A DNA stretch of 31,251 nucleotides from the NCBI GenBank assembly GCA_964450195.1, contig CAYVCK010000002.1, positions 1-31,251 of the forward strand. Direction: 5' to 3'. Below are positions 25,175 to 30,891 of this stretch, piece by piece. The notes under the pieces are model-generated. The model did no database searches, was not told where the DNA came from, and saw only the letters and a list, made by a program, of their open reading frames with translations. Made by a program: the position numbers and the translations under genes. Position 1 is the first letter of the stretch. Each line of letters opens with the position of its first letter. The stretch is from an uncultured Gammaproteobacteria bacterium (GTDB taxonomy: Bacteria > Patescibacteriota > Patescibacteriia > UBA2591 > CALHIP01).

Positions 25175-25337
25175 ACAAAGCATTACGCTTAAAATTCCAA
25201 ATCCTAATTTCCAATTTTCAAATAAATTCAAATCTCTAAATTCAAATTTTCTAAACTGTTTAGAATCTTGGTTATTGGAATTTAGATATTGTTTAGGATT
25301 TAGAAATTAAAAATTTGGATTTCCTGCCTTTGGCAGG
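25175..25337 (-). mobile_element. 163-bp palindromic repeat element, copy A (entire corA-cysS spacer)
   Basis: CCTGCC-AAA-GGCAGG head, heptamer arms and AAGCGTAATGCTTTGT tail; colinear with 30730..30891. Confidence 0.8.
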
Positions 25338-26267
25338 TTATAGCCATCTTTTCTTTTTAAAGAAAGAAAAGAGACCAACAAAGGTAACAATCAAAATACC
25401 TAAGATAATCCAAAAAGCCGCGGGATGACTGGCGAGGGGTATATATTTTAAACTCATGCCAAAGATGTTGGCCAGTAGACCGAGCGGCAGAATGATGACC
25501 GAAATAATAGTCAAAATTTTAATGATATCATTCATCCGGAAGGAAATCAGGGCATTATTTGTCTGCTCTAATGCTTCGCTTGTTTGCCGCATGTTTTCTA
25601 AATTATCCCAAATTTCATTAGCTATTTCTATTAAATCTTCAAAATATGGTTTTAATTCTCCCAGGGAAAAGAACTTTTTTGTTTGACGGATAAATTTATA
25701 AATGACCGTCCGATGGACCTGCACGATGCGACGGAAATTGATGATACTTCGTTTAATAACCAAAATTTCTCTGACCATTCGGCGTTCATAACCGCGAAAG
25801 ATATTATATTCTAGACTAGAAAGACTGTATTGAAGAGTATCCAGGATTGGTGTACAATAAAATAGAAGCTTGTTTAAGATTTCGTAAAGGAGGTGGGCGG
25901 GATTTTCTGTAAAGTATTTTTTCTGTTGACTCGAGCTTATCTGACAAATATTGAAGAAATTAATGAGTGGCGGAAGTTCATTGTTATGAACCGTGACCAG
26001 AAAATTTGAGCCGATAAAGAAATCTACTTCAGTCGAGACGATTTCTCTGGTTTTGCGTCGATAAACCGGGAAGAGTAAAACTAAAAATAAGTAATTTTCA
26101 CCATAATCTAATTTTGGTTTTTGGGCCGGAGAAAGACAGTCGGCCAGATGTAAAGGGTGAAAACCGTAGGTTTCTTCTAGGTGTTTCATCTCGTCCGGGC
26201 CAGTTTTTATCACATTAATCCATGTTAAACCTTCTGATTCGATTTGTTGAATAGTTGGTGGTTGCAT
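25338..26267 (-). CDS. corA: CorA family magnesium transporter
   Basis: FHPLHLADCL, C-terminal two TM helices with a GMS (GMN-like) signature. Confidence 0.9.
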   Translation of the reverse strand: MQPPTIQQIESEGLTWINVIKTGPDEMKHLEETYGFHPLHLADCLSPAQKPKLDYGENYLFLVLLFPVYRRKTREIVSTEVDFFIGSNFLVTVHNNELPPLINFFNICQISSSQQKKYFTENPAHLLYEILNKLLFYCTPILDTLQYSLSSLEYNIFRGYERRMVREILVIKRSIINFRRIVQVHRTVIYKFIRQTKKFFSLGELKPYFEDLIEIANEIWDNLENMRQTSEALEQTNNALISFRMNDIIKILTIISVIILPLGLLANIFGMSLKYIPLASHPAAFWIILGILIVTFVGLFSFFKKKRWL

Positions 26268-26442
26268 GTTAAAATCATTTTAACATATAAAATGAAAAAG
26301 CAAAGTATATAGATGTTAGAAATATGCTATAATGTTAGGATGAATCGCATTTTTACCAGCACCCCGGCCTGGAATTACTGGTACCCCGTAAAGTCGCTTC
26401 GTTCCTACAGGACGAGCTGGAGAATTTTTAAATTTTATCTAT

Positions 26443-27210
26443 ATGGAGGAAAGTAGGATTTATATCGGGACTTCTGGCTGGAATTACGGCCACTGGCAAG
26501 GAATTTTTTATCCAGAGGACATAAAGTCTCATGATTTACTTTCTTATTATAGCAGATATTTCTCAACCGTAGAAATCAATTCTTCTTTTTATCATTTGCC
26601 AAGAGAAACTACTTTTAGTAATTGGCGGAAAAAAGTGCCGAAAGATTTTTTATTTTCTGTTAAGGTCTGGCGAAGAATTACTCACCTGAAAAAATTAAAT
26701 AAAATTGAAGACGACCTAAAAATCTTTTGGCAGAGATGCATGATCCTGAAAGAAAAATTAGGGCCTTTACTTTTTCAATTTCCGCCAAGTTTCCAGGCGA
26801 CAAAAGAAAATATCAAGAGATTGGAAAATCTTTCAAAATTTATCCGCGCAAATCTGCGTTTAAATCCGCGTCAATCTGCGGGCAGACACTCTGCCCTTGA
26901 ATTTCGTCATCAAAGTTGGTTTGATGAGTCAATTTATAAAATTTTAAAAAAATATAATCTGGCTCTATGCTGGGCTGATACACCCTGCTATCCCTATCAA
27001 GAAGTCGTGACCACTAATTATGTTTATTTTCGTCTTCATGGTCATGAACAACTTTACGCCTCAAAATATACTAAAACCCAACTTCAAGATTACGCCCAAA
27101 AAATTAAAAAATGTCTAAAAAAGGGATTTGATGTTTTTATCTACTTTGATAATGACTTCGCGGGACATGCAGTTGAAAATGCAAAAACTTTAAAGACTCT
27201 TGTTGGGTGA
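26443..27210 (+). CDS. DUF72 (UPF0759/YecE-like) protein
   Basis: IYIGTSGWNY, VEINSSFY, GPLLFQFPPSF, EFRH.SW, YFRLHG, YFDND. Confidence 0.92.
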   Translation: MEESRIYIGTSGWNYGHWQGIFYPEDIKSHDLLSYYSRYFSTVEINSSFYHLPRETTFSNWRKKVPKDFLFSVKVWRRITHLKKLNKIEDDLKIFWQRCMILKEKLGPLLFQFPPSFQATKENIKRLENLSKFIRANLRLNPRQSAGRHSALEFRHQSWFDESIYKILKKYNLALCWADTPCYPYQEVVTTNYVYFRLHGHEQLYASKYTKTQLQDYAQKIKKCLKKGFDVFIYFDNDFAGHAVENAKTLKTLVG

Positions 27211-27411
27211 TATTTTTGATTTTTGAGATTTGATTTTTGATTTTAGCGAAGCGCTTGATGCTTGTGGTTATGCGATTGAAAACGCCTTAGAGCTTTCTAT
27301 ATTATTAAAGCAAAAACCGTCTTAAAAATTATAACGATCGTTATAAAAAATAAGACAAGGGAAAAATGAGTAAAAAATAAAAATTTAAAGCCCGCGAGTT
27401 TATTTTGATTT

Positions 27412-27898
27412 TTACTCGCAGGCTTCGATGATAAAGAGATGGGTTCCATATTCGACGGCATCACTCTCTTTGACGAGAATGTTTTTGATTTTATACTTCT
27501 TGCCGACAAATAGTGATTTCGAGTTTAGATTGCCATTTGGTCCTTTTTCAAAAACAAGTTTTTTCTTATCTAAAGATTCTAAGTCAATATAGTTTTTAAG
27601 TTTTAAAACTTTAATGCAGCAGAGTACGCTTTCAAAATTGATATCATCTCCTATTTCTACTGTTGTTTGATTTTTTTCGTCTTGGAGGGAAAATCTGCCC
27701 ACAAGAGGCGAAAGAAGGACAATTTGTTCTTTAGGGGCTAATTTGACTTGAGGGGCAGCCGAAATAGCGCCTTTAACAAACCTAAATTTTAAGTTTTCAG
27801 ATTGATAAACAACTTCTGTCTGGGGTGGGTGTCTGGGGTGAGCAAGAAGCGAATAAATCGGCGAGTGTCTCTGGCAGCTCTTTTGTTTGCTTGTTCAT
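27412..27898 (-). pseudogene. AccB-like biotin carboxyl carrier protein frameshifted by a 13-bp tandem duplication
   Basis: SD AAGGAGGTG and ATG 27898. Removing one TGTCTGGGGTG+GG unit (27817..27840) gives a 157-aa ORF with LSPLVGRF, IKVLKLKNYI and ILVKESDAVEYGTHLFII. Confidence 0.75.
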
Positions 27899-27922
27899 TC
27901 AGCACCTCCTTTTTAATAAAAT

Positions 27923-29738: not shown

Positions 29739-29966
29739 ATGGTTTCTCCTCAAAAGAGTAAGGAATTTTTATTTTTTGAAGGCAGAGTGGAAGAGTTGCT
29801 GCCATCTACCACTTTTCGGGTAAAGTTAGATGATGATCGAGAAATCTTGGCTTATCTTTCGGGAAAAATGAGGCTTTACCGGATTAAAATTATTCCCGGC
29901 GATCGAGTGAGGGTGGAAATGAGCCCTTATGATTTGACCAAAGGAAGGATTGTTTATCGATATTAA
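29739..29966 (+). CDS. infA: Translation initiation factor IF-1
   Basis: [18 protein letters not shown]...AYLSGKMR...[21 protein letters not shown]. Confidence 0.98.
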
Positions 29967-30033
29967 ATCAAAAATTAAAAATTAAAAATCAAATATCAAA
30001 AATATTTTGATTTAATAATTTGTAAATTTTGAC

Positions 30034-30147
30034 ATGAAAGTCCGAGCCTCGATTAAAAAGAGATGTCGAAAGTGTAAAATCGTCCGTCGCAGAAGACGGC
30101 TCTATGTTATTTGTAAAAATCCAAGACATAAACAAAGGCAGGGCTAG
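30034..30147 (+). CDS. rpmJ: 50S ribosomal protein L36 (Zn-binding type; not in the ORF track)
   Basis: [37 protein letters not shown]. Confidence 0.97.
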
Positions 30148-30280
30148 CCTCGCGTTGCTAGGAAATAAAAAATAAAAAACCAAAAATAAAAAATACAAAT
30201 GAAAAACTAAAATATTTCCACCTTTAAAAGTTTGTGTTTTTAACATTTAATATTTTATATTTTATTTTAGCAAAGCGTTT

Positions 30281-30670
30281 ATGGCTCGTATCGCTGGTGT
30301 TAATTTACCGCCTAATAAAAGGGTTGAAGTTGGTTTGACTTATATTTTTGGTATTGGTCGGAGTTTGGCGAACTATATTTTAAAGATAACTGACATTAAT
30401 CCAGATAAACGCGTGCGTGATTTAACGAGCGAAGAGGTAGAGAAAATTAAGACATTAATAGAAAAAAATTATAGAGTTGAGGGGGGGTTAAGAAGAGAAA
30501 TCACTTCAAACATTAGAAGACTAAAAGAGATTGGTTGTTTTCGCGGCGTAAGACATGCTAAGCGTTTGCCGGTGCGCGGGCAGAGGACGAGAACAAACTC
30601 ACGCACGGTGCGCGGTAATGTGCGAAGGACTATGGGTAGTGGCCGAAGGCCAGCCGCGAGAAAGGTGTAA
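30281..30670 (+). CDS. rpsM: 30S ribosomal protein S13
   Basis: [24 protein letters not shown]...[16 protein letters not shown]. Confidence 0.98.
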
Positions 30671-30729
30671 CGATTTTGTAACTGCTCAGACTTCGCTTTT
30701 CAAGCTCGTCTTCACAGACAAAATCGTTA

Positions 30730-30891
30730 CCCGCCAAAGGCAGGAAATCCGAATCTCTAATTTTTAAATTTTAAACAATATCTAAATTCCAATAACCAAA
30801 ATTCTAAACAGTTTAAATATTTGAATCCGAGATTTTGAACTTGTTTAGAATTTAGGATTTTGGATTTAGAATTTTAAGCGTAGCGGTTTGT
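30730..30891 (+). mobile_element. 162-bp palindromic repeat element, copy B (abuts the rpsK ATG)
   Basis: CCCGCCAAAGGCAGG head and AAGCGTAGCGGTTTGT tail; colinear with 25175..25337. Confidence 0.8.

Follow-up and report, generated by a model that had tools for sequence, protein, structure and literature searches.

Why two long palindromes of similar sequence should each end at the base before the start codon of an essential gene is the question raised by a 31,251-nt stretch of DNA (the window; contig CAYVCK010000002.1 of assembly GCA_964450195.1, here C2). It comes from an uncultured bacterium of the Patescibacteriota whose genome comprises 817 kb in 108 contigs with 36% GC. The two palindromes, copy A in front of cysS and copy B in front of rpsK, had been interpreted from the letters alone (the sequence-only reading) as an element that is mobilised as single-stranded DNA (ssDNA), targets translation-initiation regions and serves as an initiation module independent of the Shine-Dalgarno (SD) sequence. 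We favor another explanation, with a probability of roughly 60%. A and B would be sister copies, without an open reading frame (ORF), of a hairpin family that resembles the intervening sequences (IVSs) of rRNA genes and the Rickettsia palindromic elements (RPEs). They would have been inserted into tight gene junctions and be bordered by independent head and tail modules. In the following, G000 is the host genome, other G numbers are genomes of the same order, and C numbers are contigs of G000.

The alignment of A and B showed 84% identity over 162 nt (E = 5.7e-42), in line with the 80% estimated by eye, and the core of approximately 42 nt with one difference was recovered as 45 nt with a single mismatch. 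Copy A is the entire corA-cysS spacer (163 nt), from the corA stop codon to the cysS ATG. It fills the spacer exactly because the true cysS start is the ATG at 25174 (N-terminus MLKLYNTL...HIGN), not the upstream TTG of the longest ORF. The final base of copy B lies directly 5' of the rpsK ATG (30892). Unlike copy A, copy B is only part of its spacer, as 59 nt of another hairpin repeat precede it; a relative of that repeat was found on contig C31. The head CCYGCC-AAA-GGCAGG and the tail AAGCGTA..TTTGT-ATG were present in both copies. The exact head motif occurred twice in the whole genome, and the complete 163-nt composite of head, core and tail was represented by A and B only, which form an inverted pair at a distance of 5.4 kb. 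Both were predicted to fold into the head hairpin, a long imperfect AU hairpin and the tail, followed by a free AUG. The fold z-scores were -4.5 and -3.7, and 0 of 200 shuffles folded as well.

An nhmmer model was seeded with A and B and then iterated, and its matches covered the AT-rich core only (117-nt consensus). The core family comprised 55 loci in the 0.82-Mb genome, of which 39 reach 80 nt or more, and was found in 25 of the 41 genomes of the order. This agrees with the earlier proposal of a dispersed, insertion-type palindromic family. The family unit is approximately 100-130 nt long and combines two arms of 7-8-nt units, A-rich on the 5' side and T-rich on the 3' side, with a conserved centre between them (TCTAAACA...TGTTTAGA). 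Subfamilies carry matching changes in both arms, such as AATGTC/GACATT versus AAATTC/GAATTT. The median fold z-score across 28 copies was -3.8, even against arm-wise shuffles, and most copies are significant hairpins. Two further copies, on C34 and C8, have a related CCGCC-AAA-GGCGG hairpin, which belongs to a separate GC-hairpin repeat family also found inside ORFs. A search of genome contigs with the exact head-core junction pattern gave matches in unrelated taxa only, which were taken as chance, and the exact tail pattern had no match in the metagenome contigs searched.

The sequence-only reading had predicted a sharp same-strand peak of element ends 0-5 nt before ATG codons, and had named random placement and orientation, or the existence of two copies only, as results that would count against it. 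Placement was measured in 27 tandem spacers with a full-length core. The core was co-directional with the flanking genes in 12 and opposite in 15 (binomial p = 0.70). Its end was within 5 nt of the downstream start in 0/27 and within 10 nt in 1/27, while 7/27 cores lay within 10 nt of the upstream stop. The median distance was 29 nt on the stop side and 40 nt on the start side, so that any bias in placement is towards the upstream stop. Two of the related spacers said to end at start codons gave different results: the rpsM spacer does, but the family member before groEL is in the opposite orientation and ends 33 nt before the ATG. The orientation and placement of the core are thus not linked to starts, and the limit of two copies is true of the full composite but not of the core. 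By its own terms, the strong start-targeting hypothesis is therefore refuted.

A look for empty sites in relatives had been suggested, and both junctions proved to be nearly empty in most of them. The rpsM-rpsK spacer is 5-27 nt long in 19 of 29 relatives of the order; in a few other lineages, the junction is expanded by different, lineage-specific heptamer palindromes. The corA-cysS adjacency is kept in 17 relatives, and 13 of these have a short junction (-10 to +31 nt), with a 10-nt overlap in five and spacers of 1, 5, 10, 11, 12, 17, 19 and 31 nt in eight. At the same junction, a separate 197-nt insert of G019 contains a family member whose end is 7 nt short of the ATG. Another hairpin element occupies this junction in G020, and in G025 a 448-nt insert combines an A-arm with a PF05635 ORF and a T-arm. 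The short junctions indicate that A and B are derived insertions. A and B (the latter with the repeat before it) reach from stop to start because each entered a junction that is nearly empty in relatives. The junctions that they entered were almost empty and probably translationally coupled.

G000 has three to four PF05635 genes. Of the 41 genomes of the order, 29 have PF05635; the copy number reaches 18, and several copies contain stops. The C5 gene (15674-16015) occupies the middle of a palindrome of the A/B type, with ...TTCTAAACAGAT before its ATG and a T-rich arm after its stop. After the ORF was removed for analysis, the C5 arms aligned to family model positions 2-112. Heptamer inverted repeats (z > 3) flank 15 of the 30 PF05635 loci examined across the order, and one locus in G006 uses the same AAATTCC/GGAATTT units. 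In G007 and G026, PF05635 elements have arms that stop 6-8 nt short of the ATGs of rpsM and rplX. The presence of the palindrome and that of PF05635 co-occur (counts 21/3/7/9, Fisher p = 0.005), in genomes that are phylogenetically non-independent. Two marks of IVS-type hairpins were thus found: inverted-repeat ends that form a long stem, in the folds of A and B, and a PF05635 (S23p/IVP) ORF in the loop of some members. PF05635 resembles Avd, a protein of diversity-generating retroelements (DGRs) (PMC10053308). A search for a reverse transcriptase in this genome found none, so a link to DGRs or retro-mobility is unsupported. About 150-170 nt 3' of the C5 gene (L128 1300-1345, minus strand), TTGACT-17-TATTAT is followed after 7 nt by ATG, which is the geometry expected for a leaderless mRNA.

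Members of the family also lie inside genes. Single A-rich arms occur in frame in RadA, TsaD (two), TopA, a class I aminoacyl-tRNA synthetase, Fmt and a glycosyltransferase, and five of these inserts, in RadA, TsaD, TopA, the synthetase and Fmt, have Pfam domains on either side. The inserts in ORFs are mostly a single A-rich arm, giving NSKFQI-type peptides of 20-35 aa. The synthetase ORF (G000:C27:221-3175) carries a PDDEXK_3 nuclease domain (E 8e-32) at residues ~240-354 in addition to the repeat-arm insert. The 16S rRNA gene of G019 contains a full member in its 5' variable region, and two metagenome contigs (L045 and L046) have one in the 16S gene between model positions ~1100 and 1175. 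These metagenome members are 86-89% identical to A/B over 71 nt, and the rest of that genome is approximately 68% identical to G000. A and B themselves are in mRNA spacers, not in rRNA. Three sequences interrupt the 16S gene of L045 (450-3311): a group I intron (991-1245), another large insert and the palindromic element. The 3' tail of this gene reads GGATCA-TTCTTA, without CCTCC.

Proximity to starts did not hold for the core family, but it held for the tail motif, which is part of a separate module, a T-rich heptamer arm ending in (A)GCGAAGCG. In the host genome, GCGAAGCG stands exactly 3 nt before the ATG of 10 genes, including rpmH, rplP, rpsC, rpsG, rpmF and rpsM, without an SD sequence. 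Among the best 19 module matches, 11 adjoin a true start codon, versus 0.3 expected. The reversed GCGAAGCG pattern overlaps the motif itself and was discarded as a control for the host genome. TTAGCGAAGCG-N2-3-ATG was found 5' of rpsC in G009, of an L23-like gene in G035 and of three genes in G010, again without SD, and the reversed-pattern controls in these three genomes gave none. Start motifs of the GCGAAGCG type occur in three other families of the order, always without SD. The tails of A and B (TTTTAAGCGTAGCGG and TTTTAAGCGTAATGC, each with TTTGT and ATG) are diverged forms of GCGAAGCG-N3-ATG.

T-rich arms ending in GCGAAGC, GCAAAGC or GCGTAGC were confirmed at all five positions reported earlier (4926, 15241, 27246, 30270 and 30878). 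Modules of an arm plus a mini-hairpin also adjoin the 3' ends of tRNA and transfer-messenger RNA (tmRNA) genes, on the other strand, and the 5' ends of tRNA genes. The modules are not specific to translation, because they occur at tRNA/tmRNA ends, in ORFs and, elsewhere, in 16S rRNA genes. The module may serve as a region of transcript initiation, as a hairpin at the 5' end or as a protein site. A search of the 16S rRNAs from relatives for a complement of GCGAAGCG that might act as a new anti-SD gave no consistent site. SD-like words stand 5' of only ~5-10% of predicted starts in the genome. SD independence had been proposed as a feature of the element, but the absence of SD is not an element property because it is genome-wide, which fits an erosion of the anti-SD in the order. 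The 3' tails of the 16S rRNAs in the order contain CCTCCT, CCTCAT, CCTCTT, CTACAT or TTCTTA; these agree with the anti-SD loss reported for part of the Parcubacteria (PMC9297842).

We believe that such elements would insert where a hairpin is tolerated, that is, at tight operon junctions, on rRNA helix tips and in proteins, there as single in-frame arms. Longer members would carry in the loop the PF05635 gene, which encodes the 23S-rRNA-IVS protein, an Avd-like four-helix bundle. The borders would be two modules that recur independently, a GC hairpin of the CCGCC-AAA-GGCGG type as the head and a diverged GCGAAGCG motif as the tail. The element would be co-transcribed with its operon and fold into an imperfect AU hairpin of ~40-50 bp. 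RNase III would then cut the hairpin, as in rRNA IVSs, so that the cistron 3' of it would have a short leader without SD, starting near the tail; this leader may be translated like the rest of the SD-poor genome. A perfect sigma-70 promoter lies 5' of infA, so copy B is probably transcribed within the infA-rpmJ-rpsM-rpsK operon. The genome encodes RNase III (rnc) and a four-domain S1 protein, and A and B are probably RNase III substrates.

Several points weigh against this explanation. The core family alone leaves the head and tail common to A and B unexplained. Hairpins are copy-specific, with z > -2 in 9 of the 28 family copies, and RNAalifold on the 28 copies found no common register or consensus structure, which makes a covariation count impossible. 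The PF05635-bearing arms score only weakly against the family model (20 bits, with heavy bias correction). The host metagenome-assembled genome (MAG) contains no rRNA contig, and the rRNA location was seen in other organisms only. Transcription through the element and cutting by RNase III rest on inference, as the runs that matched the window, from subsurface and groundwater, were DNA sequencing runs only.

Known systems resemble the family in part. IVSs of rRNA genes are hairpins excised by RNase III, some with an S23p/PF05635 ORF (PMC4990558). Like those in the 23S genes of Salmonella, Leptospira and Coxiella (PMC4990558), the family forms long hairpins from inverted repeats (100 to several hundred nt), has a PF05635/S23p ORF in the loop of some members and none in others, and is sporadic across lineages. 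Some members of the family lie in 16S rRNA helices of other organisms. The rRNA genes of candidate phyla radiation (CPR) bacteria hold short ORF-less inserts and 23S_rRNA_IVP ORFs (PMC11270868). Our literature searches gave no description of such repeats in CPR bacteria other than in rRNA genes. Unlike rRNA IVSs, A, B and most copies here lie in mRNA spacers or ORFs, with RNase III excision only inferred, and there are tens of copies per 0.8-Mb genome, with arms of 7-8-nt units. RPEs are palindromes of ~100-150 nt located between genes, within RNA genes and, in frame, within conserved proteins, and the present family shares this size and all of these locations. To our knowledge, RPEs show no target duplication and have no known transposase, which is a further likeness. 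The present family differs from them in sequence and host lineage, in the mostly single A-rich arms within ORFs and in its link to PF05635 genes. The Correia elements of Neisseria can supply promoters and RNase III sites. With these and other miniature inverted-repeat transposable elements the family has in common dispersed copies of 100-160 bp, inverted ends and presumed co-transcription with neighbours; unlike for them, no target-site duplication and no parent insertion sequence (IS) with matching ends were found, and the whole element is palindromic. Repetitive extragenic palindromes (REPs, 20-40 nt) and the bacterial interspersed mosaic elements built from them are thought to act on mRNA stability. 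Together with the REP-associated tyrosine transposase (RAYT, Y1), they offer another parallel as extragenic palindromes in operon spacers, but the present units are longer and no Y1 transposase was found (PF01797, no match).

An ssDNA element of the HUH/Y1 type that targets initiation regions and was domesticated as a portable SD-independent module is unlikely. It would account for the ends of both full copies at ATGs, for the likeness of their tail to the GCGAAGCG-N3-ATG of 10 host genes and of G009, G010 and G035, and for the nearness to ATGs of the G019 corA-cysS member (7 nt) and of the PF05635-element arms in G007 and G026 (6-8 nt); an S1 protein is also encoded. However, a 12:15 orientation with 0/27 cores within 5 nt of a start is not what it predicts, and the modules are also found at tRNA/tmRNA ends, in rRNA genes and in ORFs. 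In the full predicted hairpin, base pairing makes the U-rich arm unavailable to S1, and SD sequences are lacking genome-wide. The associated transposase that had been predicted was not found: searches of the host genome for Y1_Tnp, TnpB, DDE_Tnp_1 and DDE_3 gave none, although the MAG is fragmented and absence is not proven. The flanks also gave no sign of a target-site duplication (mean longest shared word 3.69 versus 3.61 permuted, p = 0.36; the element boundaries are fuzzy). Four rve-domain loci were considered as a parent IS and rejected, being mutually dissimilar and having no family matches nearby. Slightly less doubtful is a terminator-promoter cassette, in which the head hairpin ends the upstream transcript and the T-rich arm is a promoter that starts transcription in the GC mini-hairpin, giving leaders of 4-12 nt. 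In copy B, TTTAGA-17-TAGAAT (9/12) ends 19 nt before the ATG, and rpsM has TTAACA-17-TATTTT; a GC-rich stretch occupies the place expected of a discriminator, and T-rich arms stand directly 5' of a tRNA 5' end. Short or absent leaders are also suggested at infA, whose perfect promoter ends 20 nt 5' of the ATG, and by the promoter-like sequence on C5. On the strand of copy A, however, there is no scoring promoter, and the tract after the head hairpin is A-rich, not U-rich. Promoter-like matches in the region barely exceed those in shuffles (28 versus 19.7 +/- 4.1), single arms occur in either orientation to genes (for example, the A-arm on C52 between a tRNA and an SD-bearing gene), and elements are also present in ORFs and rRNA genes.

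A local origin without any mobility, with heptamer arrays grown by slippage and the likeness of A and B due to one inverted duplication or gene conversion, is very improbable. The head and tail common to A and B only, their inverted arrangement 5.4 kb apart and the short tandem units of the arms would fit it. It is contradicted because the homology is dispersed and crosses genomes: a non-repetitive central sequence is common to dozens of loci on many contigs and recurs in other genomes that are otherwise ~68% identical, and insertions are found in ORFs and rRNA genes. We also considered a more far-reaching model, which is speculative and about as doubtful as the terminator-promoter cassette. 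Here, the PF05635 gene and the heptamer arms would form an autonomous/non-autonomous pair of hairpin-borne mobile elements that insert at gene boundaries and rRNA helix tips. The ORF-less, GCGAAGCG-tailed copies would be kept as operon punctuation cut by RNase III, releasing very short SD-less leaders in a Parcubacteria-like order with an eroded anti-SD. In this model, the hairpin may also keep the stop and start codons close to each other for reinitiation.

IVS hairpins and the PF05635 "IVS protein" have hitherto been treated as oddities of rRNA genes. In an order of ultra-small groundwater bacteria, such elements, with and without the gene, are spread across operon junctions, protein genes and rRNA genes. 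We know of no role for the PF05635 protein outside DGRs, where Avd is its relative, and the family offers a system for asking how the hairpins move and what this protein does. Essential, formerly overlapping gene pairs (corA-cysS and rpsM-rpsK) tolerate hairpin inserts of 160-220 nt in a lineage nearly without SD use, and the conserved GCGAAGCG-N3-ATG gives a concrete handle on the start of translation or transcription in such organisms. For annotation, the repeats lead to falsely extended ORFs and to unusual peptide inserts within core enzymes.

Table 1. Coordinates of the two copies, related repeats and neighbouring genes in the window
Feature	Position	Strand	Remarks
Copy A	25175..25337	-	Head hairpin 25337-25323; AT-palindrome core 25308-25195; tail 25194-25175
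Copy B	30730..30891	+	Head hairpin 30730-30744; core 30757-30871; tail 30872-30891; ends at rpsK ATG
Separate hairpin repeat	30671..30729	+	12-bp stem TAACGATTTTGT / ACAAAATCGTTA; between rpsM stop and copy B
rpmJ-rpsM spacer	30148..30280	+	Same layout, second heptamer family: GC hairpin, A-rich arm, T-rich arm, GCAAAGCG, TTT, ATG
infA-rpmJ spacer	29967..30033	+	A-rich arm then T-rich arm, from stop to start
Family member, groES-groEL spacer	18103..18205	-	Opposite to genes; groEL ATG at 18239
Partial one-arm family member	19878..19947	-	Just 3' of groEL stop
Palindrome from tmRNA 3' end to infC GTG start	4831..4946		Fills the interval; AGCAAAGCT mini-hairpin on tmRNA side
T-rich arm + AGCGAAGCG module	15203..15255	+	Preceded by GC-rich hairpin repeat
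T-rich arm + AGCGAAGCGCTT module	27208..27261	+	No real gene follows, only a 10-codon ORF
cysS	23795..25174	-	Pfam-confirmed; ATG 25172-25174 adjoins copy A
corA	25338..26267	-	Pfam-confirmed; stop codon 25338-25340 adjoins copy A
rpsM (S13)	30281..30670	+	Pfam-confirmed
rpsK (S11)	30892..31251	+	Pfam-confirmed; start codon adjoins copy B; leaves the window
Perfect sigma-70 consensus TTGACA-17-TATAAT	29690..29718	+	5' of infA; likely promoter of infA-rpmJ-rpsM-rpsK operon

The gene naming of the sequence-only reading had to be corrected, as 29739-29966 is infA and infC is at 4330-4830. The A-then-T layout was considered as a rule for all spacers and dropped, since it was seen in only 29 of 268 tandem spacers. 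In the window, murB (27923-28946) consists of two ORFs with a 14-nt overlap, an N-terminal part with FAD_binding_4 followed by MurB_C, and carries an in-frame AAAATCA-type arm at 28408-28460. An 85-aa ORF on the minus strand (29989-30246) has no Pfam match, overlaps the true rpmJ (30034-30147, plus strand) and is almost certainly spurious. Elsewhere in the genome, a family palindrome begins 3 nt 3' of the stop of the RNase III gene (C40:1662-2354), both within G000:C40:1662-2506.

Other repeats were noted besides the core family. A GC-rich double mini-hairpin repeat was seen on many contigs (for example, C6:16003, C9:57, C10:5571, C7:10866 and C34:929), both in spacers and within ORFs, that of RadA among them; it consists of CCGCCAAAGGCGG and then a CCGCCTCGGGCGG-like unit. 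Another hairpin repeat family has GATATTTATAGATAC-like arms with the apex GCGAAGC (C12:6457, C24:8865, C86:683, C18:9309, C1:17704 and C29:1179). A further repeat family (CTGCCTTCGGCTCGCC...GCGAAGCGGGCAG) has at least 5 copies, one of them at position 15178 of the window.

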